Assembly (NCBI RefSeq): GCF_050920415.1
Contig: NZ_CP169309.1
Length of the DNA: 64,000 bases
Strand: one strand, 5' to 3'
From: Escherichia coli
GTDB lineage: Bacteria; Pseudomonadota; Gammaproteobacteria; Enterobacterales; Enterobacteriaceae
Part shown: positions 24,117 to 59,045 of the stretch, one piece after another
How positions within the stretch are numbered: position 1 is the stretch's first letter
Layout: every line of letters begins with the position of its first letter
Position numbers and translations under genes: made by a program
Notes under the pieces: model-generated
Seen by the model: the letters and a program-made list of their open reading frames with translations, nothing else
Told to the model about the DNA's origin: nothing
Databases searched by the model: none

Positions 24117-25600
<1,484 letters not shown>

Positions 25601-35782: not shown

Positions 35783-36550
35783 ATGGCAGATACCTCTTCA
35801 ACCACCGCTGGCGCACAAACGTTATTACGCGGGCTGGCGGTTCTTAATGCTGTTTATAACGGCTGCCATGACCTGAAAAGTATCGGCGAGTTCACCGGCA
35901 CGACCCGGAGCACAACCCATCGTTTAGTCACCGTTCTGGTGGAACAACGCTACCTGCGCCACGTCCCAACGCAGGGCTACCAACTGGGCGCCAAACTGAT
36001 CGAATTCGGTGCCAGAGCGCTGGAAAGCACCTCGCTGTACGAAGTTGCGCTGCCCGTTTTGCAACGCCTTGCCCGTTACACCCTGGACACCGTGCATCTG
36101 GGGATCGTTGAAGGCGACGAAGTGCTGTATCTGGAGAAGATCAACAGCCAGCGCGGGCTGGAAATGCGCTCACGCCCAGGCCATCGCATGCCACTGGCAA
36201 TCACCGGCATCGGCAAGGCATTGATCCTCAACCGAACAGAAGAAGAGTGGCGCACGCTGTTTAAGACCTGTGGTGATGAAACAAAACTGGGCGCATTTAT
36301 TCAGAACATGCGTCGTTATGCCGCCAGTGGTTTTGCTTTTGATCTGGAAGAGAACGAGCCGACTATCCGTTGCGTTGCAGCGCCGGTTTACAACGCCCGG
36401 GATGAAATTGTGGCGGCTATTTCTGTCGCCAGTACCACTACGTATATGTCACTGGCGCGTCTGGAAGAACTGGCACCTTACGTCAAATCCTGTGCAGAAG
36501 AGATATCCGCTGAACTGGGCTGGGGTAAGCACGTTCACAAAAATAAATAA
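35783..36550 (+). CDS. IclR-family transcriptional regulator (start at MADTSS after an AGGAG RBS)
   Basis: N-terminal HTH (LLRGLAVLNAV...) followed by an IclR-type effector domain; first gene of an accessory cluster. Confidence 0.7.
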   Translation: MADTSSTTAGAQTLLRGLAVLNAVYNGCHDLKSIGEFTGTTRSTTHRLVTVLVEQRYLRHVPTQGYQLGAKLIEFGARALESTSLYEVALPVLQRLARYTLDTVHLGIVEGDEVLYLEKINSQRGLEMRSRPGHRMPLAITGIGKALILNRTEEEWRTLFKTCGDETKLGAFIQNMRRYAASGFAFDLEENEPTIRCVAAPVYNARDEIVAAISVASTTTYMSLARLEELAPYVKSCAEEISAELGWGKHVHKNK

Positions 36551-36573
36551 ACCATGACTAAAGGAAACGGCTA

Positions 36574-37578
36574 ATGTCGGGAAACACCTCATTTATTGCC
36601 CTGGACTGGGGAACGTCATCGCTTCGGGCATGGCGTTTTGGCGACTCACCCAATCCACAAGAAAAACGTGAATTCCCGTGGGGGATCATGAAATTACCCT
36701 CCCAGGCAGCAACACGTGAGGACGCTTTCCACGATACGTTTTTACGTGTCTGCGGCGACTGGCTGGCACAATCCCCATGCCCGATTCTGGCTTGCGGCAT
36801 GATCGGCAGTGCGCAAGGGTGGCAACCCGCAGCTTATTTACCTTGCCCGGTCACTCTCGAGGGTCTGGCAAAGCAGTTGACGCCTGTTATCTACCAGCAG
36901 CAGACAATGCTGCACATCATTCCCGGCGTGATTAAAGAAGGTGAAATGCCCGAAGTGATGCGTGGCGAAGAGACACAAATCTTCGGTGCTATCTCGATGG
37001 AACCGGCCCTGCAAAACGCGCTCCGCCAGGGTATGCCTGTGCTGATTGGCTTACCTGGCACACATGCGAAATGGGCGGTAGTTGAAAACAACACCATTAC
37101 CGATTTTCGAACCTTTATGACAGGCGAGTTATTTGATGTTTTATCCCGCCATTCGATTCTCGGTGCCACCATGCGTTCGGGAGATGAACCGCACTGGGAT
37201 GCCTTCGCCCACGGGCTGACAGCGGCACAAGAGCATCATCAGACCGGATTATTATCGACGCTGTTTTCGACCCGTTCGCGCCTGCTGACCAGTAATCTTA
37301 CGCCGTCCTCACAGGGGGATTACCTTTCAGGATTACTGATAGGCCATGAATTATGCGGTCTGGCATCCAGTTTGCTACGTGATTTACCCGCCACAACACC
37401 GATCGCCTTAATCGGTAGCGCCACTCTGAACAGCCGCTATTCACAAGCATTCAGCCACGTTTTTCCCGACAGACAGCTACACGCCATTCCTAATGCCACT
37501 GAACAGGGGTTATGGCGAATCGCCCACGCTGCCGGGCTACTCTCCACCAACGCCAGGGAATGTACTCATGCCATTTAA
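36574..37578 (+). CDS. 2-dehydro-3-deoxygalactonokinase-like sugar-acid kinase (DgoK family)
   Basis: Motifs IALDWGTSSLRAW, VMRGEETQIFGA, PGTHAKW, DFRTFMTGELF and LSGLLIG parallel E. coli DgoK. Confidence 0.7.
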   Translation: MSGNTSFIALDWGTSSLRAWRFGDSPNPQEKREFPWGIMKLPSQAATREDAFHDTFLRVCGDWLAQSPCPILACGMIGSAQGWQPAAYLPCPVTLEGLAKQLTPVIYQQQTMLHIIPGVIKEGEMPEVMRGEETQIFGAISMEPALQNALRQGMPVLIGLPGTHAKWAVVENNTITDFRTFMTGELFDVLSRHSILGATMRSGDEPHWDAFAHGLTAAQEHHQTGLLSTLFSTRSRLLTSNLTPSSQGDYLSGLLIGHELCGLASSLLRDLPATTPIALIGSATLNSRYSQAFSHVFPDRQLHAIPNATEQGLWRIAHAAGLLSTNARECTHAI

Positions 37579-38197
37579 TACGCTTTTGCAAAAAACCGGG
37601 TTAGTCGCCATTTTACGCGGCGTGAAACCGGATGAGATTGTCGCCATCGGTGAAAAGCTGTATGCCTCTGGATTTCGCCTGATTGAGATTCCCATGAACT
37701 CGCCGGAGCCGTTGCAAAGTATCAGTTTACTGCGCGACGCCCTGCCTAAGGACTGCCTGGTCGGAGCCGGAACTGTGCTTTCGGTGGAGCACGTCGTCGC
37801 GGTTAAAGAGGCTGGAGGCCAGATTATCGTGATGCCGCATTGCGATACTGCGGTGATCCGTCGTGCCCGTGCGCTGGGTATGTATTGTGCGCCTGGCGTC
37901 GCTACGCCCACCGAAGCTTTTGCTGCCATTGAGCATGGTGCTAATGCCATCAAGCTGTTCCCGGCTGAACAAATTACGCCTGAAGTCACCAAAGCCTGGC
38001 GTGCGGTTATTCCACAATCCGTTCCGATGTTACCGGTTGGCGGTATCACTCCGGAAACCATGGCGCGTTATCTGAGCCACGGTGCAAACGGCTTTGGTCT
38101 CGGTTCTGCGCTTTATCGCCCTGGCATGACGCCAGAGCAGGTCTATAAAAATGCAGTACTGTTTATGAACGCATGGACCAATTTAAACAACAACTAA
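37568..38197 (+). CDS. 2-dehydro-3-deoxy-6-phosphogalactonate aldolase-like (DgoA/Eda family; start at MPFNTLLQ)
   Basis: AILRGVKPDEIV..IEIPMNSPEP motifs of KDPGal/KDPG aldolases; ATG overlaps the kinase stop. Confidence 0.7.
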   Translation: MPFNTLLQKTGLVAILRGVKPDEIVAIGEKLYASGFRLIEIPMNSPEPLQSISLLRDALPKDCLVGAGTVLSVEHVVAVKEAGGQIIVMPHCDTAVIRRARALGMYCAPGVATPTEAFAAIEHGANAIKLFPAEQITPEVTKAWRAVIPQSVPMLPVGGITPETMARYLSHGANGFGLGSALYRPGMTPEQVYKNAVLFMNAWTNLNNN

Positions 38198-38221
38198 CTG
38201 ATAAATAAGGATATAAAAACA

Positions 38222-39196
38222 ATGATAAAACATCTTACCTTACCGAAAAAAATGGCTGCAATGGTACTCCTTGCCGGCGCTTCCCTCAGCACTGCGCCTG
38301 TGCAGGCGGCCTCCTACCCAACCAAACAGATCGAGTTAGTCGTACCCTACGCGGCCGGAGGCGGTACGGATCTGGTTGCCCGTGCCTTTGCTGATGCCGC
38401 CAAAAACCATTTGCCCGTCAGCATCGGGGTTATCAATAAACCTGGCGGTGGCGGCGCTATCGGCCTGAGTGAAATCGCCGCTGCCCGCCCTAACGGTTAC
38501 AAAATGGGTTTAGGCACGGTTGAACTGACCACCCTTCCCAGCCTCGGAATGGTGCGTTTTAAAACCAGCGACTTTAAACCCATTGCCCGTCTGAACGCGG
38601 ATCCGGCTGCTATCACCGTCCGTTCTGATGCGCCGTGGAATAGCTATGAAGAATTTATGACTTACGCCAAAGCGAATCCCGGAAAAGTACGCATTGGTAA
38701 CTCAGGCACCGGAGCAATCTGGCATCTGGCGGCAGCTGCACTGGAAGACAAAACGGGCGTGAAGTTTTCTCATGTCCCATATGACGGCGCAGCCCCTGCC
38801 ATTACAGGCCTGTTAGGCGGGCATATTGAAGCGGTTTCCGTAAGCCCAGGTGAAGTTATCAATCATGTGAAAGGCGGCAAGCTGAAGACACTGGTAGTGA
38901 TGGCGGATGAACATATGAAAACCATGCCTGACGTACCGACGTTAAAAGAGAAAGGCGTTGATCTCTCCATCGGCACCTGGCGCGGTCTGATCGTGTCGCA
39001 AAAAACGCCGCAGGATGTGGTTGATGTTCTGGCTAAGGCCGCAAAAGAGACGGCTGAAGAGCCTGCATTCCAGGATGCTCTGCAAAAGTTGAATCTCAAC
39101 TATGCATGGCTTGATGGTGCCAGCTTCCAGACCCAAATCAACGAACAGGAAAAGTACTTTGACGAGTTACTAACTCGGCTGGGCTTGAAAAAATAA
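38222..39196 (+). CDS. tctC: Tripartite tricarboxylate transporter substrate-binding protein (TctC/Bug family)
   Basis: 324 aa with signal peptide; Bug-family periplasmic binding protein features. Confidence 0.7.
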   Translation: MIKHLTLPKKMAAMVLLAGASLSTAPVQAASYPTKQIELVVPYAAGGGTDLVARAFADAAKNHLPVSIGVINKPGGGGAIGLSEIAAARPNGYKMGLGTVELTTLPSLGMVRFKTSDFKPIARLNADPAAITVRSDAPWNSYEEFMTYAKANPGKVRIGNSGTGAIWHLAAAALEDKTGVKFSHVPYDGAAPAITGLLGGHIEAVSVSPGEVINHVKGGKLKTLVVMADEHMKTMPDVPTLKEKGVDLSIGTWRGLIVSQKTPQDVVDVLAKAAKETAEEPAFQDALQKLNLNYAWLDGASFQTQINEQEKYFDELLTRLGLKK

Positions 39197-39212
39197 TCCC
39201 GAGGTACGGTCG

Positions 39213-39719
39213 ATGAACACAAAACAGTCTGTTGCTCAACTCGCCGTACCGCACCGCAAGCGCCTTTCATCCACTGTGGTGGTGGCGCTGTTACTTTGTG
39301 TGGTTGCTGGCGCGGTGATAATTAATGCCGCTGATTTTCCAGCAACTGCCATTGAAACGGATCCCGGTGCAAGTGCCTTCCCTACTTTCTATGCCTGCGC
39401 TCTGATTGTGCTCGCTGTCTTACTGGTGATACGCGATCTTTTGCTGGCAAAACCAGTCCCTTGCGCCAACGCACAGGAAAAACCGGCATTAAGGAAAACG
39501 GCAACAGGAATTGCGGCAACCGCGTTTTATATTGTGGCGATGAGCTACTGCGGTTATCTCATTACTACTCCTGTTTTCCTCATCGTCATTATGACGTTGA
39601 TGGGCTACAGGCGATGGGTACTCACACCGGGTATTGCGCTGCTGTTAACGGCAATCCTCTGGTTGCTGTTTGTCGAAGCGTTACAGGTGCCATTGCCTGT
39701 CGGCACATTTTTCGAATAA
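39213..39719 (+). CDS. tctB: Tripartite tricarboxylate transporter small membrane subunit (TctB-like)
   Basis: 168 aa, four predicted TM helices, located between tctC and tctA. Confidence 0.55.
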   Translation: MNTKQSVAQLAVPHRKRLSSTVVVALLLCVVAGAVIINAADFPATAIETDPGASAFPTFYACALIVLAVLLVIRDLLLAKPVPCANAQEKPALRKTATGIAATAFYIVAMSYCGYLITTPVFLIVIMTLMGYRRWVLTPGIALLLTAILWLLFVEALQVPLPVGTFFE

Positions 39720-39731
39720 CAGGGGCCTGCA

Positions 39732-41222
39732 ATGTTTGAAAGTGAACTTTTAACTCAGGGGTTTTCGACATTACTCAGTAATCCTCAGGCGCTGCTGTTT
39801 GCCACGTTTGGAGTGATGCTGGGTATTATGATTGGCGCTCTGCCTGGCCTGACAGCGACCATGGGTGTGGCGATTTTGCTGCCTTTCACCTACGGCATGG
39901 AGCCTGTTTCTGGCTTATTGATGATTTGCGGTGTCTTTTTTGGTGGTGTGTATGGTGGTTCTATCACCGCAATTTTGCTCAAAATTCCCGGTACACCTGC
40001 CGCCGCTGCCACCGCCATTGACGGATATGAGCTGACGAAGCAGGGAAAAGCCGGGCTGGCGTTAAGTGCCGCCACGTTCTCTTCTTTTAGCGGTGGAACG
40101 CTCAGCATTATCGTATTGATGTTTCTCTCTCCGGTACTTGCCAGTTGGGCGTTGAAATTTAGTGCCTCGGAGTCCTTCGCCCTGGCAACCTTCGGGCTAA
40201 GTATTATTGCCAGTATTTCCGGTGAGTCACTGATTAAAGGGCTGATTGCCGGGGTTGGCGGATTGCTGATCGCAACGATAGGCCTTGATCCAATGGGCGG
40301 TTTTCCACGCTTTACAGGTGGATTTGTGGAGCTGATGAATGTGCCATTTATCCCGGTGATGATTGGTCTGTTTGCTGCTTCAGAAGCATTCCGCTCTATG
40401 GAGCAAAACCAGCAAATTCGTCAGGGGGCGAAGGTGGCTATCGGCAGTCTGTTACTGCCCTGGCAAACACTACGCCGCATCGCATTAACCATTTTGCGCT
40501 CATCAGGATTAGGGGTTTTTATCGGCATGATCCCCGGTGCGGGGGCAGATATTGCAGCTTTTGTTGCCTATAACGAAACTCGTCGTTTCAGTAAGACGCC
40601 TGAAAACTTTGGTAAGGGTGAGATTAAGGCGGTGGCCTCCTGTGAGGCAGGCGCGAATGGCTGCACCGGTGGCGCATTGTTACCTATGCTGACGTTGGGG
40701 ATCCCAGGCGATGCGGTAACTGCCATCATGCTGGGCGCGTTAACGTTACAAGGGATGCAGCCAGGCCCACTGATGTTTACCGACCACGGCGATATGGTTT
40801 ATACGCTGTTTGTCGGCATGATCTTTTGTTACTTCATGCTGCTAGTTCTTGGACTGCTCTCTTTGAAAGTCATCGGTAACGTGGTGAAGATCCCCGGCAA
40901 TATTCTCACGCCGATGATCCTCGCGCTTTGTGTTGTTGGGACTTATGCGCTGAACAACAGCCTGTTTGATGTTGGCATTATGCTGATTGCAGGCGTGGTG
41001 GGCTATTTCATGCAAAAAGGGGGGTATCCGGCGTCACCCGTAGTGCTGGCATTGATTATGGGGCCAATGGCGGAAAGTAATTTTCGCCGTGCGCTGTCGC
41101 TTTCAGGGGGGTCACTCGACTTCCTGTATACCCGACCGATAACCCTGGCATTGCTGACTCTGGCAGCCTTTACGCTACTGACGCCAATAATACGCAAAAT
41201 TATGCGCTTACGGCGTCAGTAA
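39732..41222 (+). CDS. tctA: Tripartite tricarboxylate transporter large permease (TctA family)
   Basis: 496 aa polytopic membrane protein with glycine-rich TctA-like repeats. Confidence 0.75.
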   Translation: MFESELLTQGFSTLLSNPQALLFATFGVMLGIMIGALPGLTATMGVAILLPFTYGMEPVSGLLMICGVFFGGVYGGSITAILLKIPGTPAAAATAIDGYELTKQGKAGLALSAATFSSFSGGTLSIIVLMFLSPVLASWALKFSASESFALATFGLSIIASISGESLIKGLIAGVGGLLIATIGLDPMGGFPRFTGGFVELMNVPFIPVMIGLFAASEAFRSMEQNQQIRQGAKVAIGSLLLPWQTLRRIALTILRSSGLGVFIGMIPGAGADIAAFVAYNETRRFSKTPENFGKGEIKAVASCEAGANGCTGGALLPMLTLGIPGDAVTAIMLGALTLQGMQPGPLMFTDHGDMVYTLFVGMIFCYFMLLVLGLLSLKVIGNVVKIPGNILTPMILALCVVGTYALNNSLFDVGIMLIAGVVGYFMQKGGYPASPVVLALIMGPMAESNFRRALSLSGGSLDFLYTRPITLALLTLAAFTLLTPIIRKIMRLRRQ

Positions 41223-41276
41223 TTGATATCGCTCCCCGACGTTGGGGAGTATGAGACTGATGACAAACGCTAAATT

Positions 41277-41376
41277 GCCTGATGCGCTGCGCTTATCAGG
41301 CCTACCACAGAAATGCAATATATTGAATTTGCATGCTTTTGTAGGCCGGATAAGGCGATCACGCCGCATCCGGCAT
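41277..41376. repeat. RIP-type BIME: two inverted REP units flanking an AT-rich putative IHF-site spacer
   Basis: gcctgatgcgctgcgcttatcaggcctac ... tgcaatatattgaatttgcatg ... taggccggataaggcgatcacgccgcatccggca. Confidence 0.65.
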
Positions 41377-41407
41377 GAACAAAGCACACGTTAACAACAA
41401 TCGGAAT

Positions 41408-41440
41408 GCTCCCCGACGTTGGGGAGCGTTTTTTTATTTC
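41408..41440 (+). terminator. Hairpin plus T-run overlapping the udp 3' end; second copy of a duplicated 19 bp palindrome
   Basis: gctccccgacgttggggag followed by cgtttttttatttc; the identical hairpin also occurs at 41231-41249 just after tctA. Confidence 0.5.
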
Positions 41441-42198
41441 AGCAGACGACGCGCCGCTTCCACCACGATTTTCACCGCATGGCTTTCGGTTTGTTTCATC
41501 GTCTCAGCATTCGGGATCTCTTGCTGGGTACGATTGACGATAACGCCCGCCACCATACCCGCACGCAGGCCCTGGCTTGCACACATGGTCAGCAGGGTTG
41601 CAGATTCCATTTCATAGTTCATTACGCCCATCGCCTGCCACTCTTCCATAGAACCTTTAAAGTGACGGACTACACGACCAGAGTAAGTATCGTAACGTTC
41701 CTGACCTGGGTAGAAGGTATCAGAAGAAGCCGTCACACCAACGTGAGTGGTGGCACCAATTGACTTCGCCGCTTCAACCAGCGCGGTCGTACATTCGAAA
41801 TCTGCGACAGCCGGGAACTCCAGCGGAGCGAAGTGCAGGCTCGCGCCATCCAGACGAACAGACGCCGTGGTCACCAGCACATCACCCACATTAATATGCG
41901 GCTGGATAGCGCCCGTTGTACCGATACGCAGGAAGGTGCGAATGCCCAGCTGTGCCAGCTCTTCAACCGCAATAGAGGTAGACGGGCCGCCGATACCGGT
42001 AGAGCAGACGATAACAGGTTTACCATCCAGCTCTGCACGCCAGGTGGTGAATTCGCGGTGAGATGCCAGCTTAACCGGCTTATCCATCAGCGCGGCGATC
42101 TTTTCCACACGATCCGGGTCGCCAGGGACGATGGCAAGCGTAGCCCCTTGTAAATCGTTTTTAGTGAGGCCGAGATGAAAAACATCATACTTGGACAT
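41434..42198 (-). CDS. udp: Uridine phosphorylase (start at [10 protein letters not shown])
   Basis: About 254 aa PNP/UDP phosphorylase closely matching E. coli Udp. Confidence 0.95.
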
Positions 42199-42271
42199 AT
42201 ACAACTCCTCTGTGAATCGGTTTAGTCAGAAGAAGCAAAAAGACACTTTACCGAAGGGTTTGACATTTTTT

Positions 42272-42340
42272 CGTGACACTCATCACCTTGATGCAAATGC
42301 GTTGCATAAATTTACCCAGCAAAAGTGATGCGAATCACAT
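42272..42340 (-). promoter_or_regulatory. udp promoter region with two CRP-like dyads
   Basis: cgtgacactcatcac and agtgatgcgaatcacat resemble TGTGA-N6-TCACA; the udp promoter is known to be CRP/CytR controlled. Confidence 0.4.
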
Positions 42341-42459
42341 AAATCACTCTTCATTCTGCATGACTGCATAAAAGATGAGCCGATTCAGGCAATGTGATTT
42401 GTTGCATGCTGACTATAGTTAACATTGCGCAACATTTTTATAAGGGTACGGAGAATACC

Positions 42460-43272
42460 ATGGCAACAACACAACAATCTGGATTTGCACCTGCTGCATC
42501 ACCTCTCGCTTCGACCATCGTTCAGACCCCGGATGACGCGATTGTAGCAGGCATCACCTCTATCCCTTCACAAGGGGATAACATGCCTGCTTACCATGCC
42601 AGACCAAAGCAGAGCGATGGCCTACTACCAGTGGTCATTGTAGTGCAGGAAATTTTTGGCGTGCATGAACATATCCGCGATATTTGTCGCCGTCTGGCAC
42701 TGGAGGGGTATCTGGCTATCGCACCTGAACTTTACTTCCGCGAAGGCGATCCGAATGATTTTGCCGATATCCCTACGCTGCTTAGCGGTCTGGTAGCAAA
42801 AGTGCCTGACTCGCAAGTACTGGCCGATCTCGATCATGTCGCCAGTTGGGCGTCACGCAACGGCGGCGATGTTCATCGCTTAATGATCACCGGATTTTGC
42901 TGGGGTGGGCGCATCACCTGGCTGTATGCTGCGCATAACCCGCAACTGAAAGCGGCGGTGGCATGGTACGGCAAACTGACAGGCGATAAGTCGCTGAATT
43001 CACCGAAACAACCTGTTGATATCGCAACCGATCTTAACGCGCCGGTTCTCGGCTTGTATGGTGGTCAGGATAACAGCATTCCGCAGGAGAGCGTTGAAAC
43101 CATGCGCCAGGCGCTGCGGGCTGCTAATGCGAAAGCAGAGATTATCGTCTACCCGGATGCCGGGCATGCATTCAACGCCGATTATCGCCCGAGCTATCAT
43201 GCCGAATCTGCGAAAGATGGCTGGCAGCGAATGCTGGAGTGGTTTAAGCGGTATGGTGGGAAACGGAATTAG
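42460..43272 (+). CDS. dlhH: Dienelactone hydrolase-family protein (start at MATTQQSG)
   Basis: About 270 aa alpha/beta hydrolase with a GFCWGG nucleophile motif; position next to udp as for K-12 ysgA. Confidence 0.85.
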   Translation: MATTQQSGFAPAASPLASTIVQTPDDAIVAGITSIPSQGDNMPAYHARPKQSDGLLPVVIVVQEIFGVHEHIRDICRRLALEGYLAIAPELYFREGDPNDFADIPTLLSGLVAKVPDSQVLADLDHVASWASRNGGDVHRLMITGFCWGGRITWLYAAHNPQLKAAVAWYGKLTGDKSLNSPKQPVDIATDLNAPVLGLYGGQDNSIPQESVETMRQALRAANAKAEIIVYPDAGHAFNADYRPSYHAESAKDGWQRMLEWFKRYGGKRN

Positions 43273-43663
43273 TTTCCTCTTAGTCTATATTTGAGATGGT
43301 GAGTGAACGAATGCGTTTTGCTGCCATCTCTGTCCCCCAAAAAATAATCAGTATGAATTGATTGGAGAGCACGACTCCGCTATTTGACCTTAAGAAAGTC
43401 GGCAAGTCATAGTCATAAATGAGTCTCTTCACTGGCAGACACCTTAAAGATTTACCATCAACTCCCATTCTCAAACAAACATTAATTATTATCAACACAT
43501 TCACATTAATTATAAATTATCTCAGACCTTCCTGATAAAAAGATATTAAAGTGAAACATTTTGTTTTTCACATTTTAGTTCATCCCTATTAGGCGTAAAT
43601 AAAGGTAAAAAATAACAATACTATTTTTCTTTCACAAAAGAATTAACAAAAGGTTTTTCAAGG

Positions 43664-44062
43664 ATGAGTGATATTATTTACCTGACCATAACCGGAGAAC
43701 AACACGGATGTATTTCCTCTCGTTGTGGAACGAGCACATCAATAGGTAATCGCTGGCAGATTGGTCATGAAGATGAAATCTTCGCGTTCTCGCTCTCTAA
43801 TAGTATTACGAATACAGGAAAAGGGTCACATTTGCATGGCCTTAGTTTCTGTAAGTTGATTGACAAAAGCTCCCCGTTACTTATTAACGCTATTAACAAT
43901 AACGAGCAGTTGTTCATGGAGTTTGACTTCTATCGGATCAATAGATTTGGTCGATGGGAGAAATATTACAACATTCAACTCCGCGGCGCGCTCTTATCAG
44001 CAATCAATCACCTGTTTACGGAGAACAATCTGGATACAGAAACCATCACTGTCAGTTATTAA
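43664..44062 (+). CDS. Hcp-like type VI secretion tube protein domain (132 aa, shorter than typical Hcp)
   Basis: IYLTITGEQHGCISSRCGTSTSIGNRWQIGHEDEIFAF, IDKSSPLLINAI, FYRINRFG and ETITVSY follow the Hcp1-family pattern; RBS before the ATG; AT-rich context. Confidence 0.6.
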   Translation: MSDIIYLTITGEQHGCISSRCGTSTSIGNRWQIGHEDEIFAFSLSNSITNTGKGSHLHGLSFCKLIDKSSPLLINAINNNEQLFMEFDFYRINRFGRWEKYYNIQLRGALLSAINHLFTENNLDTETITVSY

Positions 44063-44107
44063 TATATACTCTCCAGGCATCTGATTGCTAATACTGAATT
44101 TAGTTAT

Positions 44108-44812
44108 TTGGCATTTCCCGATAACTACAATCGTCTGTTTATACCACGGCCAAAAACTAAAGATGATAATGGCCTCAAAACACTCAATAGTAAAGCTGTT
44201 GGCAGACTGCTTGCTGCTGGCGGCATATACAATGGGAATATCGAAGGATTCAGGGAAACAGCAAACAAGTTGGGGGGAGATGCACCTGCTGGTTACGATC
44301 AAGTTATGGATAACAAAGGGTTACTCATCGCTGGTGCTTCAATAGTTGCTGGAGCAGTTCTGGGGAGAATGAGACTCCCTGATTTGGAATCACTTGAGCA
44401 TTTCGGAGCCAGAGGAGCAGTATCAGGAAGACCATTTAATCCCGACCTTGCCGGTGGTCCAATAGAAAATCTGACGACAGATGGCGTAACAATCAACAGG
44501 GAAGGTATCGCTATTGTTGAAAAACACATAGCCAGATTTGGTCATGACCCTGTAAATGAAGTGATGATCAATAGACTGAAAGACATTGAGAAAGGAAAAA
44601 TCCCCCCAGAACAAGTAGATCTTAACTTCTATACTCATGAATGTCGGGAATATCAGCGTTACTGTAATCTTGGTTGGGAAACAGGACAACCTGATGGTGA
44701 CGCAGGCTATGCACTCTGGAATCATACGCATACTGCTACTCTAGAAGATTATAAACTTAAGGGAGAACTTAATGACTTATACCACCAGGATGCACTTGAC
44801 TATGATAACTGA
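44108..44812 (+). CDS. Putative toxin/effector domain protein of unknown class
   Basis: 234 codon ORF in the same frame as the Hcp-like ORF, open from the TAA at 44060-44062; no ATG or clear RBS near its 5' end; glycine-zipper-like GLLIAGASIVAGAVLG segment. Confidence 0.4.
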   Translation: MAFPDNYNRLFIPRPKTKDDNGLKTLNSKAVGRLLAAGGIYNGNIEGFRETANKLGGDAPAGYDQVMDNKGLLIAGASIVAGAVLGRMRLPDLESLEHFGARGAVSGRPFNPDLAGGPIENLTTDGVTINREGIAIVEKHIARFGHDPVNEVMINRLKDIEKGKIPPEQVDLNFYTHECREYQRYCNLGWETGQPDGDAGYALWNHTHTATLEDYKLKGELNDLYHQDALDYDN

Positions 44813-45047
44813 AACTGAAATTAACGTACTGAAAGTTATGGCTGAGAAAGATATAAACTGGAACTGGATGAATCTCGATCGCACACTATCTATAAGGCAA
44901 ATTCCAGGATTCGGTAATGTTGTTAACATTGTTAACAAATTAGCTAACGAGGGTTTGGTTATTATTGAGGATAGCGGACATAAGTCTATGCCTCACTACC
45001 ACGTTACTGAAAAGGGATACAATCTCGTGAAAAGTGAGAATAAATAA
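44802..45047 (+). CDS. Small winged-helix-like protein, candidate immunity protein or regulator
   Basis: ATG at 44802 overlaps the upstream stop (ATGATAACTGA); the ~81 aa product has an HTH-like LSIRQIPGFGNVVNIVNKLANEGLV segment. Confidence 0.4.
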   Translation: MITETEINVLKVMAEKDINWNWMNLDRTLSIRQIPGFGNVVNIVNKLANEGLVIIEDSGHKSMPHYHVTEKGYNLVKSENK

Positions 45048-45195
45048 CGTAGCGTTGATTACTGAACAAATCGCTCAGGATTATATTTTGCGAAAAAAAT
45101 GATTCGGTTATTTCTGTGTCTGAACGGCCGCAGATAGCAAAATGGCTTCCGGTGATGGAAGCCATCAGATTATTGGCAAAGTGCGTGTTGTTCAT

Positions 45196-45226
45196 GCCGG
45201 ATGCGGCGTGAACGCCTTATCTGGCC
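45196..45226. repeat. REP element
   Basis: gccggatgcggcgtgaacgccttatctggcc. Confidence 0.7.
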
Positions 45227-45333
45227 AACTAAATCTTGAAAATTCAATAAATTGAATAAATTATGTAGGCCTGGTATCAGGCAGTTTCGCCTCTTTCATC
45301 GTACTGCAATTTACAGTGACTCGTTAATACTCA

Positions 45334-47595
45334 TCATCCCCGACGCAAATTCTGCGCCGCCTGCACCATGTTCGCCAGTGCCGCGCGGGTTTCTGGCCAG
45401 CCGCGCGTTTTCAGGCCACAGTCCGGGTTGACCCACAGACGCTCTGCCGGAATGCGTTGTGCCGCTTTCTTCAGCAGGGACTCAATCCATTCCACGCTCG
45501 GTACGTTTGGCGAGTGAATGTCATAGACGCCAGGACCGATTTCATTCGGATAATCAAACTCTTCAAACGACTCCAGCAACTCCATGTCGGAACGCGAGGT
45601 TTCGATTGTGATGACGTCAGCATCCAGCGCCGCAATCGAATCCATGATGTCGTTGAACTCGCAGTAACACATGTGAGTGTGGATTTGCGTGTCATCTTTC
45701 GCTACGGCAGCGTTGATACGGAAAGCCTCCACGCCCCACTGGAGATAGGCATCCCAGTCGCTGCGACGCAGCGGTAAACCTTCGCGTAGCGCCGGTTCAT
45801 CAATCTGGATGATGCCAATTCCAGCGGCTTCCAGATCGGCCACTTCATCACGAAGCGCCAGCGCAATTTGTTTGGCGATGGTTTCACGGCTGACATCTTC
45901 ACGCGGGAACGACCAGCAGAGAATGGTCACCGGGCCAGTCAGCATCCCTTTCACCGGTTTATCAGTCAGAGATTGCGCATACTTCGCCCACTCCACGGTA
46001 ATCGGTGCCGGGCGGCTAACGTCACCAATAACAATCGGTGGCTTCACGCAGCGGGAACCGTAGCTCTGTACCCAACCGTTTTGCGTAAAGACAAAGCCAT
46101 CCAGGTGCTCGCCAAAGTATTCCACCATGTCATTACGCTCGGCCTCACCATGCACCAGCACATCCAGACCCAGACGTTCCTGCTCAACAATGGCCTGCTT
46201 GATATGTTCTGCAATGCCCGTGCGGTAGTTGTTGGCGTCGAGATTACCCTTTTTGAAATCCAGACGCAGGGTACGGATTTCTGTGGTTTGCGGGAAAGAG
46301 CCAATCGTGGTGGTCGGCCAGGCTGGCAGTTTAAAACGCGCACGCTGGGCTTCAGCACGCACTTCATAAACGTTCGCACGCTGGCTGTCCTGGGCTGTGA
46401 TCGCTGCCAGACGTTTTTCTACCGCCGGATTATGGACGCGGGTTGAGTGACGACGCGCCTGAATCGGAGCGCTCCACTCTGCCAGAGCTGCCGTGTCACC
46501 ACTGTTCAACGCATCGCGCAGCAGCGCCAGTTCATGGCATTTTTGCAGGGCGAAGGCAAACCAGCTTTTCACTTCCGCATCAAGACGCGTTTCCACACTC
46601 AGGTCGATAGGGCTGTGCAGCAATGAGCAGGAAGATGCCACCCACAAATCACGTTTGCCGACAATGTCCTTAATTTGCGCATATTTCTCGGTAAGATCGG
46701 CGCGCCAGACGTTACGACCATTGATAAGACCCGCAGACAGCAGCCAGTCAGAAGGCAGACGCTTGTGCAGTTCAGCAACGTCATCTTTACCATGTACGAG
46801 ATCGACATGCAGCCCCTGAACAGGCAGCGCAGTAATGGTGTCGAGGTTTGGCGTTACGCCTTCAAAATAGGTGGTCAGCAGCAGTTTCACCTGGCCCTGG
46901 AGCGCGTCGTAAGCGGGTTTATAGGCGTCCAGCCACGCCTGCGGCAGTTCCAGTACCAGAGCCGGTTCGTCGATCTGTACCCACTCAATGCCGCGTTTTG
47001 CCAGTTCTGCCAACACTTGCTGATAAACCGGCAGAATGTCGTTTAGCAGGCTCAGGCGATCAAACTGTTCACCTTTCACTTTACCCAGCCACAGGTAGGT
47101 AACCGGCCCCAGCAGCACGGGCTTGACCTTGTGGCCCAGCGCCAGCGCCTCGTCCACTTCCTCCAGCAGTTGCGTCCAGGTCAGTTTGAACTGTTGGCCT
47201 TTAACGAACTCCGGCACCATGTAGTGATAGTTGGTGTTAAACCATTTGGTCATTTCCGCTGCCGCCGCAGGTTCACCAGTCGGTGCACGTCCACGACCAA
47301 TACGGAACAGGGTGTCGATATCTACCGAACCATCTTTGTTCTGGTGACGCGCCGGAACGTTACCCAGCAGCAGGCTGGTGGTCAGGACATGATCGTACCA
47401 GGCAAAATCGCCCACCGGCAGCAGGTCGATACCTGCTTGCTTTTGTTGATCCCAGTGACGGGCACGTAATTCACGCCCAACCGCCAGCAGTTCTTCACGC
47501 GTGGAGTTCCCCGCCCAATAACTCTCTTGCGCTTTTTTCAGCTCGCGACGCAGGCCAACGCGAGGGAAACCGAGGGTGTGATTCAATATTGTCAT
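45334..47595 (-). CDS. metE: Cobalamin-independent methionine synthase
   Basis: 753 aa; N-terminus [29 protein letters not shown] matches MetE. Confidence 0.97.
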
Positions 47596-47747
47596 TTTTC
47601 TTCCTCTAATTATATGTAAATCCTATGGATTTTGAATTTAGGGAAGGCGGCAAGTTTATTCATCCCCGGGAGCTTACTGAAGTAAGTGACCGGGGTGAAG
47701 AAACGCAGCCAACGCACCATAAATTTAAAAGACGAAGGATTTTAGCC

Positions 47748-47770
47748 GTCCAGATGTTTACACATCCATA
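47748..47770. promoter_or_regulatory. Candidate MetJ-box-like repeats in the metE-metR divergent control region
   Basis: cagatgtttacacatcca resembles degenerate tandem AGACGTCT boxes; exact sites uncertain. Confidence 0.3.
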
Positions 47771-47830
47771 ATTGGCGGTTACTGTATATTCCTCAAGCGC
47801 AAATTATTCATGCCGAAGTGAAGGACTTTC

Positions 47831-48784
47831 ATGATCGAAGTAAAACACCTGAAAACGCTACAAGCGTTGCGGAACTGCGGCTCACTCGCAGCCGCTGCGG
47901 CGACGTTGCATCAAACGCAATCCGCCCTGTCTCACCAGTTTAGCGATCTGGAACAACGCCTTGGCTTCCGGCTATTTGTGCGTAAAAGCCAGCCGCTTCG
48001 GTTTACACCGCAGGGAGAAATCCTGTTGCAACTGGCGAATCAGGTGCTGCCGCAAATCAGCCAGGCACTGCAAGCCTGCAATGAACCGCAGCAGACGCGC
48101 CTGCGCATTGCCATTGAGTGCCATAGCTGTATTCAGTGGCTGACGCCCGCGTTAGAAAATTTCCATAAGAACTGGCCGCAGGTGGAGATGGATTTTAAAT
48201 CGGGCGTGACGTTTGACCCGCAGCCCGCGTTGCAGCAGGGTGAGCTGGATCTGGTGATGACCTCCGATATTCTGCCGCGCAGTGGCCTGCATTATTCGCC
48301 GATGTTCGATTATGAAGTGCGTCTGGTGTTAGCGCCTGACCATCCACTGGCGGCGAAAACGCGAATCACGCCGGAAGACCTCGCCAGCGAAACGCTGTTG
48401 ATTTATCCGGTGCAGCGTAGCCGACTGGATGTCTGGCGGCATTTTCTTCAGCCCGCAGGCGTTAGCCCGTCACTGAAAAGCGTCGATAACACCTTGTTGT
48501 TGATTCAGATGGTTGCCGCACGGATGGGCATCGCTGCGCTACCGCACTGGGTGGTGGAGAGTTTTGAACGCCAGGGTCTGGTGGTCACCAAAACCTTGGG
48601 CGAAGGCTTGTGGAGCCGACTGTACGCCGCCGTGCGCGATGGCGAGCAGCGTCAGCCGATTACAGAAGCGTTTATTCGTTCAGCGCGCAATCACGCCTGC
48701 GATCATCTGCCGTTTGTGAAGAGCGCGGAGCGACCCACTTACGATGCACCCACAGTGAGGCCAGGATCACCAGCGCGCCTGTAA
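47831..48784 (+). CDS. metR: LysR-family transcriptional activator MetR
   Basis: 317 aa with an N-terminal LysR HTH; divergent from metE. Confidence 0.95.
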
Positions 48785-57668: not shown

Positions 57669-58517
57669 ATGAACAACATATTAGGCTCATCAATTAATAT
57701 GCCCTGTACACTTTTCGAAACTATTACTTTATTCGATGATTTTTCTGCTGATGATATGCAGTATGGGGATATGGAAGAACAAGATTTTCTCTCACTCGGC
57801 TTAAGCGACATCTCTGCAAAAGTTGATCCTTACCGCCTCATTAAATACCATTTTCCTGGGCCGAATTCTACTTATGGTGCTTTTAGTGTTCCAACTTCTG
57901 GAACAAAAATATCACAAAGTGAATGTATTGATATTTTATTTGCAGAAATGAAAGATCTGGCAAAAATGTTTTCCTTTTTTGGACAATACAAAACACTCAT
58001 CCAGGATCTGATTGATCATTTTAGATATGGAAATGGCAACAGTTTCCATAGCCAGGAATTGAACTTATCTTTTCATGAACGAATAAACAAATATGATTAT
58101 AATAGCCCAATACGTGTAATCAAAGAATGTATCGAAAATGATATTTCTTCAACACCTACGATAGGATACCGGCCTCTTCTCCTACAAAAGATTAAGACCG
58201 AATTACTTTCATCAAGACTAAATAAATTCAATGATTTTAAAGATAATTTTAATGGCCTGGGAATCAGCATTCATGATATCTCAGCTCAAAAAATATCTCT
58301 TTTAAATTTTCAAAAATATCCTATGGGCTGGAGCGCTACCATTCATTTCATAGCACAAGACCACTTTGGTTTGGATGTGACTGATATAAAAAACAAGATT
58401 TACAACAAGTATAGATTTTTTCGCATATGGTTCTTTTTACAACGGCATAAAGACTTTGCTTTCAAACCTTTTTTTACCAATTTTAACACTATCGAAAGAA
58501 TCGAAAATTATCTATGA
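57669..58517 (+). CDS. Hypothetical protein (282 aa), AT-rich accessory gene
   Basis: ORF preceded by AGGAGA RBS; low-GC codon usage unlike neighbours; no family recognised. Confidence 0.45.
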   Translation: MNNILGSSINMPCTLFETITLFDDFSADDMQYGDMEEQDFLSLGLSDISAKVDPYRLIKYHFPGPNSTYGAFSVPTSGTKISQSECIDILFAEMKDLAKMFSFFGQYKTLIQDLIDHFRYGNGNSFHSQELNLSFHERINKYDYNSPIRVIKECIENDISSTPTIGYRPLLLQKIKTELLSSRLNKFNDFKDNFNGLGISIHDISAQKISLLNFQKYPMGWSATIHFIAQDHFGLDVTDIKNKIYNKYRFFRIWFFLQRHKDFAFKPFFTNFNTIERIENYL

Positions 58518-58942
58518 AAAGCAAACTCCAGAAAATTATATTATATTTATTTCTTATATGCTGCATCTATAATTTATGGACATTGCGTCCTGTACAGATT
58601 TTGTATACATACTCTGATGCTGGCAATTCAGTCTTTCTGGTCGTTGATCATCTGCCATGGACTGATAGCGATAAAATAAATTGGTATCTGAAGCATCAGG
58701 ATGAAATTAAAAGTCAAAATCCCCTACCAGAAGGTAGTTGGCATACCTGGTATGTTATTGATATCGGTAATGGCTTCACTGACTATAAAAAATATATCGA
58801 AGGGCTGTATGAAGATCTCTACTGTTTCCCGACGATTAAGAGCAATGATAATTGCATCGTAAAAAACTATTTAATGGTTATTAATGAATATCCTTACCGT
58901 AATACTCATTTTTTATTGCTGATAACAATGAGTATCAACTAA
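58514..58942 (+). CDS. Hypothetical small protein with N-terminal signal-anchor (142 aa)
   Basis: ATG overlaps the upstream stop (ATGA); hydrophobic N-terminus KIILYLFLICCIYNLW. Confidence 0.45.
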   Translation: MKSKLQKIILYLFLICCIYNLWTLRPVQILYTYSDAGNSVFLVVDHLPWTDSDKINWYLKHQDEIKSQNPLPEGSWHTWYVIDIGNGFTDYKKYIEGLYEDLYCFPTIKSNDNCIVKNYLMVINEYPYRNTHFLLLITMSIN

Positions 58943-59045
58943 CCCAGGAAAATAAGATAGAGCGAGTGTTCAACCCGCATGACTTTGAAAAAGACAATTT
59001 TCAGCAATAAGCCGGATAAAGAACAATCTTTACCCGGCATTTATA

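Follow-up and report, generated by a model that had tools for sequence, protein, structure and literature searches.

A broken hcp-toxin gene beside an intact putative immunity gene: a very probable orphan Hcp-ET module between ysgA (dlhH) and metE of Escherichia coli

Proteins in which an N-terminal Hcp (TssD) domain is joined to a C-terminal toxin were described as the Hcp-ET class by Ma et al. 2017 (Virulence 8:1189), and the class is referred to here to the extent that it is summarised in PMC6730261 and PMC6099711; the names specialised Hcp and evolved Hcp are also in use (PMC8262886, PMC11148199). In Citrobacter koseri, the Hcp protein of the T6EC4/T6IC4 pair has an unannotated C-terminal domain and is toxic in E. 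coli (PMC11148199). For membership in the Hcp-ET class, we looked for a toxin lying in the open reading frame of Hcp itself, as a C-terminal extension of more than 60–120 aa. Injection by way of a type VI secretion system (T6SS) has reportedly been demonstrated for Hcp-ET1 to 4, in 2017 by Ma and colleagues, and the published Hcp-ET1 is said to require T6SS-2. Among polymorphic toxins, Rhs and CdiA systems are known, through the work of Zhang and Aravind and of Hayes and colleagues, for displaced C-terminal/immunity modules and for immunity genes left as orphans.

The locus described here lies in the window, i.e. the whole 64,000-nucleotide stretch of E. coli DNA that was analysed, between ysgA (dlhH), which ends at 43272, and metE, which lies on the minus strand and ends at 45334. 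It is very probably an orphan Hcp-ET (specialised Hcp) effector/immunity module of the T6SS whose effector is dead in this strain, and it represents a decaying copy of a known type of bacterial weapon and no new system. The gap between the two genes is 2,061 bp with a G+C content of 39.4%, compared with 53.9% and 55.7% in the flanking genes; only 39 bp separate the two stop codons in K-12 MG1655. The AT-rich DNA that the initial annotation had noticed between dlhH and metE is therefore real, but the end it had given, 45195, is the boundary of a spurious minus-strand ORF located partly inside a REP/BIME repeat, and the islet runs to 45333. A survey of the region agreed with the earlier view of it as accessory DNA that is not core to all E. 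coli, with the hcp-ET islet carried by 846 of 5,426 complete genomes (∼16%). The absence of any other T6SS gene from the window, also part of that view, is borne out by the PGAP annotation of the ∼99% identical stretch in strain N96. The following features were distinguished:

43273..43663, plus strand: upstream non-coding region, 32.5% G+C (by composition)
43664..44812, plus strand: hcp-ET pseudogene, a 382-codon frame with one in-frame TAA (single-frame translation)
43664-44062, within this frame: ORF1, 132 aa, the Hcp stump
44060-44062, plus strand: nonsense codon TAA, Glu133 to stop by a G-to-T change, next base T (GAA in intact alleles)
44108-44812, within this frame: ORF2, 234 codons, TTG 'start'
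43664..44104, plus strand: Hcp (TssD) domain, codons 1-147 of the fusion (TIGR03344 and Pfam T6SS_HCP)
44105..44398, plus strand: conserved linker, codons 148-245, with the hydrophobic G/A-zipper segment GLLIAGASIVAGAVLG
44399..44809, plus strand: C-terminal cytotoxic domain, codons ∼246-382
44802..45047, plus strand: putative cognate immunity gene (ORF3), 81 aa, WP_000627422.1, intact (PGAP on identical DNA)
45142..45165, no strand assigned: 9-bp inverted repeat ATGGCTTCC-N6-GGAAGCCAT, downstream of the immunity gene (read from the sequence)
45165..45276, no strand assigned: dispersed repeat of REP/BIME type, at the end of the islet next to metE

The hcp-ET operon presumably has its promoter in the upstream non-coding region; a scan of the islet found promoter-like consensus sites no more often than expected by chance, and no promoter was assigned. 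The inverted repeat is conserved in an alignment with other alleles and is a possible terminator stem, which the terminator scan of the islet did not detect because it is not followed by a T-run. The REP/BIME-type segment alone matched 5,425 of the 5,426 genomes, with a median of 11 places in each, and had Rfam matches to naRNA4 and ES036 that were both below threshold. This repeat is missing from the RIVM and APEC alleles, where the alignment has a gap.

The initial annotation had described an orphan Hcp gene followed by a separate toxin ORF. However, ORF1 and ORF2 share one frame and are a single TAA apart, and intact alleles encode a single polypeptide. The alignment shows GAA at this position in RIVM_C036569 and APEC E12053, and intact genes at the ysgA-metE locus, annotated as TssD by PGAP, specify 382 aa in GF43 (WP_042003084.1) and 377 aa in RIVM_C036569. 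Full-length homologues of 377–383 aa number in the hundreds across E. coli, Citrobacter and Salmonella. For the allele in N96, which is identical to that of the window, the PGAP call is 'tssD, internal stop'. The toxin is thus fused to Hcp in one ORF in intact alleles of the same locus and is cut off from it in the window by the TAA at codon 133. With the frame broken here and whole elsewhere at the same locus, the window copy reads, on its sequence, as a pseudogene of an Hcp-ET family member, inactivated within the Hcp fold by a nonsense mutation. ORF2's TTG 'start' at 44108 is an artefact of mechanical ORF calling.

Such ORF calling yields three ORFs, which could be taken for as many functional genes: an orphan Hcp serving as carrier or chaperone, a cargo toxin translated from the TTG at 44108, and an immunity protein. 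Cargo effectors next to orphan hcp genes are indeed a known arrangement. We consider it barely credible in this case, as ORF1 and ORF2 lie in one frame with one codon between them that is GAA in 844 of the 846 carriers, fusions of full length are the rule across genera, ORF1 stops ∼15 residues short of the end of the Hcp fold, there is no Shine-Dalgarno sequence ahead of the TTG, and PGAP handles the locus as one pseudogene. There is equally scarcely any likelihood that the gene still works, the TAA being either a sequencing error or bypassed by readthrough or suppression. Although one base is the difference from intact alleles, N96 and MFDS1022581, whose complete assemblies are independent, have the identical TAA and were the only two of the 846 carriers to match a 79-nt probe for the nonsense allele exactly. 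The MFDS1022581 gene carries an IS2 element in addition, consistent with a gene already freed from selection. Furthermore, the TAA is followed by T, and TAA-U ranks with the contexts in which E. coli terminates most efficiently. The reading of the islet as an orphan T6SS effector/immunity cassette, put forward in the initial annotation, therefore holds for the type of cassette and for its position away from a T6SS cluster; the effector in the window is a pseudogene.

HMM searches upheld the assignment of ORF1 to Hcp that had been made earlier from a sequence pattern, with matches to NCBIfam TIGR03344 (E = 2e-33; 115.6 bits, with the cut-off at 58.9) and to Pfam T6SS_HCP (E = 3.5e-14). In intact relatives, TIGR03344 aligns with residues 1-147 (model positions 1-161 of 167); in the truncated ORF1, the match is limited to residues 1-122 (model positions 1-131). 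With a 159-aa Hcp from the T6SS cluster at aspV in MFDS1022581, the Hcp domain shares 41% identity. Beyond it, the glycine-zipper-like hydrophobic segment first remarked upon in ORF2 was confirmed as G/A-rich and belongs to a linker that is common to Hcp-ETs with unrelated toxins (P0103, HNH; P0047, PF15644; P0107, PF21814) and is also present in carriers other than Hcp (P0084, P0120, P0088). The Hcp and linker parts are 73–75% identical to those of the 392-aa HNH protein, which is most likely Hcp-ET1. Like described Hcp-ETs, intact alleles encode one polypeptide in which an N-terminal Hcp is joined to an antibacterial toxin at the C-terminus, and have a putative immunity gene directly downstream, an orphan site away from the T6SS cluster, and a distribution largely limited to Enterobacteriaceae; unlike them, the window copy is a pseudogene.

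The gene immediately downstream has a conserved ATG at 44802 and overlaps the toxin stop by 11 nt. A small winged-helix ORF overlapping the preceding stop had been proposed at this place, and both fold and overlap stand, but the start is at 44802 and not at the ATG at 44772. The winged helix was predicted by AF2 with a pLDDT of 91.5, and Foldseek aligned it best to RosR (TM 0.80) and then to MarR and PadR regulators. Homologues sit behind the toxin in Citrobacter and in Pseudomonas indica (29% identity, E = 5e-14). When the window was compared with the RIVM allele, residues 1-285 of the effector were 97.5% identical, and identity fell to 63.9% over residues 286-382 and to 61.7% in the adjacent small gene. 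The RIVM-type toxin end with its own immunity gene was found in 730 genomes; in those RIVM-type alleles that were read, it is followed by an orphan immunity gene of the window type (88.9% amino acid and 94% nucleotide identity), and ∼710 genomes matched only the orphan-immunity half of the window probe, at 90–95%. As judged from these sequences, one toxin/immunity pair has been largely replaced by another and the old immunity gene left behind as an orphan. The effector has been inactivated in at least four independent ways, and the immunity gene was intact in every inactivated allele inspected.

Given its position, its co-variation with the toxin end and the occurrence of orphan copies, ORF3 is most likely the cognate immunity gene expected immediately downstream of an Hcp-ET. 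As the immunity gene is intact and the effector dead, the strain has probably lost the weapon and kept the shield against relatives that possess the weapon. It is unlikely that ORF3 is instead, or in addition, a small MarR/PadR-like regulator of the islet, as its fold (TM 0.80 to RosR and 0.7 to MarR-family repressors), the name 'MarR family transcriptional regulator' given to some homologues, and weak HMM matches to HTH_45 and Lrs14 might suggest. These matches were not significant (HTH_45, E = 0.096; Lrs14, E = 0.021, 14.8 bits, with the cut-off at 90), and no significant MarR HMM was obtained. At 81 aa, the protein lacks the flanking dimerisation helices of the ∼140-aa MarR architecture, and only the winged-helix core aligns structurally. 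A role as regulator also fits poorly with a gene that runs over the toxin stop codon, has diverged in step with the toxin C-terminus, against 97.5% identity in the remainder of the effector gene, persists as an orphan behind a replaced toxin end, remains intact wherever the toxin is inactivated among the alleles inspected, and has a homologue behind the same toxin domain in P. indica.

The toxin class had not been recognised in the initial annotation; the domain can now be placed in a large family of polymorphic-toxin and bacteriocin cytotoxic domains. The family comprises 473 clusters at 50% identity, and a scan of species-representative genomes found relatives encoded in 207 genome stretches, with no P. 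aeruginosa, Pectobacterium or Yersinia among the best 80 loci. In 178 of 185 relatives the domain ends ≤18 residues from the C-terminus. The 81 family representatives carry as N-terminal partners Pyocin_S (19), PAAR (4), and also Cloacin, WXG100, LysM, PT-TG, RHS and TssD; as in polymorphic toxins, the domain is thus C-terminal to unrelated trafficking domains (Hcp, PAAR, RHS, WXG100, LysM, PT-TG, Pyocin_S). Its AFDB neighbours, at 42–48% identity, are annotated as S-type pyocins, colicins or klebicins, and a 698-aa Rouxiella protein combines Pyocin_S with a toxin domain of the window type. For ten relatives of pyocin size, the names of the cluster members were uninformative. Invariant residues of the family are R256, G281, H288, D319, Y323, H325, E326, E329, W352, H356 and A358. 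The predicted structure is a high-confidence, all-alpha model with no beta-hairpin-helix metal finger, and this fold appears, at the level of the model, unlike known bacteriocin nuclease domains. ORF2 and the toxin domain had no match in Pfam, NCBIfam or PADLOC scans, and PDB sequence searches, whether by single sequence or by a 44-sequence profile, returned chance matches only.

An HNH (beta-beta-alpha-metal) endonuclease, which would make the cassette the classical Hcp-ET1 of O104:H4/STEC, is suggested by gene names and by one published similarity: PGAP names the fragment 'HNH endonuclease' in MFDS1022581, 95-3192 and one Salmonella homologue, and the C-terminus of carocin S3 is similar to a protein annotated as H-N-H endonuclease (PMC7461348). 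This identity is very improbable. No HNH, Colicin-DNase or other Pfam/NCBIfam model matched the domain or 44 relatives at E≤0.001, the predicted model is all-alpha, and in the protein with a real HNH motif (P0103, 392 aa, NVHHKLSLDDGGTNDLENLVLIENEPYHK), which is most likely Hcp-ET1 as published, similarity is confined to ∼60% of the query, namely the Hcp and linker parts. A C-terminal HNH/colicin-type DNase domain like that of classical Hcp-ET1 (O104:H4, STEC004) was not found in the window protein.

Other candidate identities were considered. The 'non-HNH DNase' of pyocin S3 is less likely, given that the immunity sizes differ: the pyocin S3 immunity protein is ∼153 aa, against 81–96 aa in the toxin family here. 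The pyocin S3 DNase domain is also without a Pfam model (Sharp et al., S1 Table). Tde5, a beta-beta-alpha-Me protein (PMC13392607), and T6EC4, which is REase-like, were rejected. As an orphan Hcp-toxin fusion of enterobacterial origin, T6EC4 resembles the locus, which likewise has a small, putative immunity gene downstream and a probable target in the cytoplasm; the two differ, by description, in that T6EC4 is reported as Tox-REase-5-like, with an alpha/beta restriction-endonuclease fold, and the window domain is predicted to be all-alpha. The C. koseri Hcp-ETs P0075 and P0077 match only 60–65% of the query, i.e. the Hcp and linker parts.

By analogy, the toxin domain is probably of the pyocin G / pyocin SX2 / carocin D / carocin S3 type. 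The likeness to PyoG (ETV05907.1), SX2 (EHF11209.1) and carocin D (ADH95192.1) is one of immunity-protein termini and shared properties, and not of an alignment of the toxins. In the pyocin-like relatives of the window toxin, the next gene encodes a protein of 85–96 aa, usually with an ATGA overlap and with the consensus MIDxxx...KGPNWKEPxFVxEKKYGIx. The primers for ImSX2, an 87-aa protein, encode MLDLEG... and ...EKKYGIV (PMC10422930), and it is the fit of the consensus termini to these primer-encoded ends that suggests a link of the toxin to the SX2 type. Carocin S3I is a 90-aa protein, likewise with an ATGA overlap (PMC7461348). In common with these bacteriocins, the domain is ∼135–155 aa long and sits at the extreme C-terminus, has homologues behind Pyocin_S/IMT, lacks a Pfam model, is unlike known bacteriocin nuclease structures, and is paired with a putative immunity protein of ∼10 kDa from an overlapping downstream gene. 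The cytotoxic domain of SX2 was reported to bear no resemblance to known bacteriocin structures (PMC10422930), in agreement with the fold of the window domain. The differences lie in delivery, which would be by Hcp and the T6SS and not by receptor-mediated import, with no Pyocin_S in the window protein (a killing domain behind Pyocin_S, or IMT, occurs in 19 of the 81 homologues examined), and in the immunity protein, which in the window is of the winged-helix type with no demonstrable homology to the SX2 type (profile comparison, E = 0.017, probability 2.7%). Reported activities within this group conflict: the carocins are DNases, and SX2 inhibits protein synthesis and has no DNase activity (PMC7322526, PMC9040868, PMC10422930, PMC7461348).

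Pyocin_S (IMT), the domain for import into the cytoplasm, is specific to bacteriocins that act there (PMC5536347, PMC9040868). Since the family forms the killing domain of many Pyocin_S/IMT bacteriocins, a cytoplasmic target is most likely for the toxin too and, by the same analogy, would be nucleic acids or the translation apparatus. An intact protein of ∼382 aa would thus consist of an N-terminal Hcp, a ∼100-aa linker with a glycine/alanine-zipper helix, and a ∼135-aa C-terminal cytotoxic domain. Judging by its family, the Hcp domain would join the T6SS tube, and on firing of a T6SS encoded elsewhere, the tube subunit would be carried into a neighbouring cell along with the toxin covalently attached to it, which would act in the cytoplasm there; the 81-aa winged-helix protein of the overlapping gene would protect as cognate immunity. 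From the window allele, translation could yield only a 132-aa stump without the last strands of the Hcp fold; for the toxin part, there is neither a separate start codon nor a separate ribosome-binding site. We tentatively propose, at somewhat less than even confidence, that the all-alpha toxin with its invariant His/Asp/His-Glu/Glu/His residues may constitute a sixth, structurally novel class of cytoplasm-acting bacteriocin/T6SS toxin, and that the Hcp-ET linker may be a device for inner-membrane translocation, analogous to the absent Pyocin_S/IMT. If so, the E. coli Hcp-ET version with its winged-helix immunity would be a handy genetic tool for settling the activity of the toxin. The domain is in any event a reasonable structural and enzymological target, being widespread, without a Pfam model or solved structure, and the subject of conflicting reports on activity.

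The locus illustrates the turnover of interbacterial weapons within one species, and in this it resembles Rhs and CdiA systems: many trafficking domains share one toxin domain, identity falls sharply over both the toxin C-terminus and the immunity gene, and the older immunity gene is kept as an orphan behind the incoming module. It differs from them in that the recombination break lies inside the toxin domain (∼codon 286) rather than at a conserved pre-toxin motif, and in that the immunity gene alone was left behind, with no orphan toxin fragment. The effector of the window itself matters little, as it belongs to a known class and PGAP already flags it as a tssD internal-stop pseudogene in N96 and MFDS1022581. 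The latter strain, the nearest relative, is 100% / 99.97% identical to window positions 40273-48333 (∼8 kb compared), apart from the IS2 insertion, and its T6SS cluster at aspV is apparently complete.

Lastly, the Yersinia pseudotuberculosis DNase YPK_0952 (PAAR and Pyocin_S; PMC11237486) may carry a toxin domain of the window type, as a Y. pestis 'colicin' fragment shows 45% identity. As a separate observation, the residues that were mutated in YPK_0952 (F441, Y450; PMC11237486) look like the DPY motif of Pyocin_S and not like part of the toxin.

In K-12 MG1655 the convergent genes ysgA (named dlhH in the initial annotation) and metE lie only 39 bp apart, the gap resembling a single hairpin. 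The same gap in the window spans 2,061 bp at 39.4% G+C (32.5% in its first 391 bp, compared with 53.9% for ysgA, 55.7% for metE and 50.9% for the whole window), and this islet is therefore real accessory DNA, as had been supposed. A survey of complete E. coli genomes recovered the islet gene in 846 of 5,426. The features are:

to 43272, ysgA, left flank of the islet
43664-44062, plus strand, ORF1, Hcp-like (132 aa, mechanical ORF call)
44108-44812, plus strand, ORF2 (234 aa, TTG start, mechanical ORF call)
44772-45047, plus strand, ORF3, winged-helix-like (91 aa, mechanical ORF call)
45334, end of metE, minus strand, right flank of the islet
Hcp domain, residues 1-147 of the 382-codon intact frame (fusion numbering)
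44105-44398, highly conserved linker, residues 148-245
toxin domain, residues ~246-382

A REP/BIME-type dispersed repeat occupies the metE edge (45165-45276); it was matched in 5,425 of the 5,426 genomes (median 11 places per genome), gave sub-threshold Rfam matches to naRNA4 and ES036, and is missing from the RIVM-type (as in RIVM_C036569) and APEC alleles of the islet.

The initial annotation described a separate Hcp gene followed by a toxin-like ORF; this did not hold. ORF1 and ORF2 share a frame, and 43664-44812 translates to 382 codons with one internal stop (TAA, 44060-44062). At the same locus RIVM_C036569 carries an unbroken 377-aa gene annotated tssD, with GAA where the window has TAA, and between ysgA and metE GF43 carries an unbroken 382-aa gene (WP_042003084.1); the distal 521 bp there (toxin C-terminus and immunity gene) are 100% identical to the window. 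The same TAA was present in two close relatives: N96 (∼99% identity across 64 kb; annotated 'tssD, internal stop') and MFDS1022581 (two flanking alignments at 100% and 99.97% identity), where hcp-ET also has an IS2 insertion near window position 44217. The 846 carriers were identified with a stop-centred 79-nt probe, which matched exactly in these two alone. No Shine-Dalgarno sequence was found ahead of the ORF2 TTG (44108), and this 'start' is an artefact. An HMM search confirmed ORF1 as Hcp, but TIGR03344 (167 positions) aligns over 1-161 in intact relatives (residues 1-147) and over 1-131 alone in ORF1, so that the stump lacks the last strands of the Hcp fold. ORF1 and ORF2 are a single gene, which is a pseudogene in the window's strain.

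Proteins in which Hcp (TssD) carries a toxin at its C-terminus, with an immunity gene next in line, are the Hcp-ETs ('specialised Hcps') that Ma et al. (2017) described for Enterobacteriaceae (summarised in PMC6730261, PMC6099711, PMC8262886 and PMC11148199); the published Hcp-ET1 is an HNH DNase. The window's gene is a member of this class; the earlier guess of an Hcp-linked effector with immunity was right. It has only Hcp and linker (the first ∼60% of the query) in common with P0103, an E. coli protein of 392 aa that carries a clear HNH motif (13,190 member sequences), and so represents another subtype. Full-length homologues (377-383 aa) occur commonly in E. coli, Citrobacter and Salmonella. 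The Citrobacter pair lies at a different locus, by a gamma-glutamyltranspeptidase gene and an ABC-transporter/glycerophosphodiesterase cluster (which we take to be ggt and ugp-like), and the module is therefore mobile. The Citrobacter immunity gene has the same 11-nt overlap with the toxin gene, and in some cases a second Hcp-ET stands in tandem with the pair. In two such Citrobacter stretches (L012 and L013, 3108-5660) the second Hcp-ET (384 aa) lies upstream with small genes of its own, including an Imm35-family protein, the whole forming a tandem Hcp-toxin array.

The linker includes GLLIAGASIVAGAVLG, and the glycine-zipper-like segment noted in ORF2 corresponds to its glycine/alanine-zipper helix. 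It is common to Hcp-ETs with unrelated toxins (HNH, PF15644, PF21814) and recurs behind other N-terminal domains, in DUF8093 proteins (Atlantibacter, Cronobacter) and 348-aa Pantoea proteins (proteins P0047, P0084, P0088, P0103, P0107 and P0120). Other T6SS nuclease effectors use a Pyocin_S/IMT domain, which the linker-bearing proteins do not have, and we therefore speculate that this ∼100-aa segment with its hydrophobic helix might serve delivery across the inner membrane.

The toxin domain had no match among Pfam, NCBIfam or PADLOC models, PDB sequence searches returned nothing, and no Pfam family was found at E≤0.001 in 44 relatives. Searching 1.84 billion cluster representatives exhaustively yielded 473 clusters at E≤0.001 (73 at E≤1e-30), and a one-genome-per-species scan found 207 stretches encoding a relative, in Proteobacteria, Cyanobacteria, Planctomycetes and Bacteroidota. 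The domain ends within 18 residues of the C-terminus in 178 of the 185 relatives that cover it, and its N-terminal partners among 81 full-length representatives included Pyocin_S (19), PAAR (4), Cloacin, WXG100, LysM, PT-TG, RHS and TssD. Family-invariant residues are R256, G281, H288, D319, Y323, H325, E326, E329, W352, H356 and A358 (fusion numbering). AlphaFold2, using the 44-sequence alignment, gave a confident all-alpha model (pLDDT 93.1, pTM 0.85); a Foldseek search of AFDB50, the fold search proposed earlier, returned only family members, many annotated as S-type pyocin, colicin or klebicin (42-48% identity). The PGAP label 'HNH endonuclease' is unsupported, given the missing HMM match, the all-alpha model and the own-family Foldseek matches. 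Interest now lies in the all-alpha toxin family, which is uncharacterised, and in the conserved linker; neither is specific to the window.

ORF3 had been noted as a small winged-helix-like ORF overlapping the preceding stop; both observations stood, though PGAP and cross-allele comparison place its start at ATG 44802, which gives an 81-aa product and an 11-nt overlap with the toxin stop. It is predicted to fold as a minimal winged helix (pLDDT 91.5; TM 0.80 to RosR, followed by MarR and PadR proteins), and no regulator HMM was significant. Gene context marks it as a putative immunity gene. The window and RIVM alleles share 97.5% identity over residues 1-285, compared with 63.9% for residues 286-382 and 61.7% for the adjacent small protein; in Pseudomonas indica an ORF3 homologue (29% identity, E=5e-14) follows the same toxin domain. 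The immunity gene was unbroken in all inactivated alleles inspected, and no signal peptide is apparent in its product. In the stretches downstream of the toxin match (loci L031 and L069-L096, ∼4400-4720) the family has two immunity types: a ∼80-aa winged helix (E. coli, Citrobacter, P. indica), and an 85-96-aa 'KGPNWKEP...EKKYGIE' protein behind pyocin-like genes.

Pyocin_S (PF06958, 'IMT') is confined to bacteriocins acting in the cytoplasm (PMC5536347, PMC9040868), and its frequent pairing with the toxin domain argues for a cytoplasmic target. One described bacteriocin killing domain, that of pyocin G, pyocin SX2, carocin D and carocin S3, resembles the toxin by description, in that it lacks both a Pfam model and a structural relative and is paired with an immunity protein of ∼10 kDa (PMC7322526, PMC10422930, PMC7461348). 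Pyocin-like genes ending in the toxin domain (Pseudomonas, Serratia, Rouxiella, Pantoea, Kosakonia) are followed, usually with an ATGA overlap, by the 85-96-aa proteins, whose consensus is MIDxxxxVKNE...KGPNWKEPxFVxEKKYGIx; published primers for ImSX2, the 87-aa SX2 immunity protein, encode MLDLEG... and ...EKKYGIV (PMC10422930). Profile comparison of the winged-helix and SX2-type immunity proteins gave E=0.017 at a probability of 2.7%. From the immunity termini and described properties, the toxin probably belongs to this family. Its reported activities are at odds: carocins have DNase activity in vitro, yet SX2 has none and blocked a transcription-translation assay (PMC10422930).

The window-type toxin end and immunity gene were found at ≥99% identity in 116 of the 846 carriers, the other 730 having the RIVM-type toxin end together with the 85-aa immunity gene that belongs to it. 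In the two RIVM-type alleles read (RIVM_C036569 and APEC E12053) that gene is followed by an orphan with 94% DNA and 88.9% protein identity to the window's immunity gene; ∼710 genomes matched the window probe in its immunity half alone (90-95%), consistent with such an orphan. Most simply, an incoming toxin-end/immunity module would have displaced an older toxin end, whose immunity gene stayed in place. Inactivation of the effector has come about independently in at least four ways:

Glu133 to stop: window, N96, MFDS1022581
IS2 insertion: MFDS1022581
Trp98 to TAG: APEC E12053, E. coli type strain ATCC 11775
IS3-family truncation leaving a 147-aa toxin fragment: O145 RM12367-C1, 95-3192

An 81-nt probe including the Trp98 TAG was exact in 257 of the 846 carriers, and UTI89 and APEC O1 have the protein in UniProt as fragments only. 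In APEC O2:K1 E12053 (L003 1-2713; L002 3001-5267) the left neighbour of hcp-ET is not ysgA; hxlB, a ptsG-like PTS gene and a transketolase gene lie there, and the sequence upstream of hcp-ET has also diverged.

Judged by the PGAP annotation of the matching N96 stretch, no T6SS apparatus lies within the 64-kb window, in agreement with the initial annotation. In MFDS1022581, the nearest complete relative, a T6SS island adjoins aspV, with tssA, B, C, E, F, G, H, J, K and M, an IcmH/DotU-family gene (presumably the tssL-equivalent), tagH, vasI and a VasL-domain gene, together with two hcp, three vgrG (tssI; one truncated, beside an IS21 element), PAAR genes and Tae4- and Tle1-type effectors. One of its Hcps is 41% identical to the fusion's Hcp domain. 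The island (L009 19567-40876) is eroded by IS21, IS2 and ISAs1 fragments and a group II intron, interspersed with its three vgrG/PAAR effector modules (Tae4-type, Tle1-type and metallopeptidase).

Elsewhere in the window, ∼1.3 kb directly 3' of fadA (24170-25445) is missing from the otherwise ∼99% identical N96; within it a minus-strand ORF (24606-25253, 215 aa) presumably represents an IS110-family transposase fragment. By N96 annotation, a second accessory islet (∼35961-41400) between rmuC and udp, neighbours in K-12, encodes an IclR-family regulator, 2-dehydro-3-deoxygalactonokinase, KDPGal aldolase and a tripartite tricarboxylate transporter (substrate-binding protein, TctB-family protein, permease), and ∼57669-59011, between rarD and corA, holds a 'YPO3983 family protein' and 'DUF943 family protein' pair.
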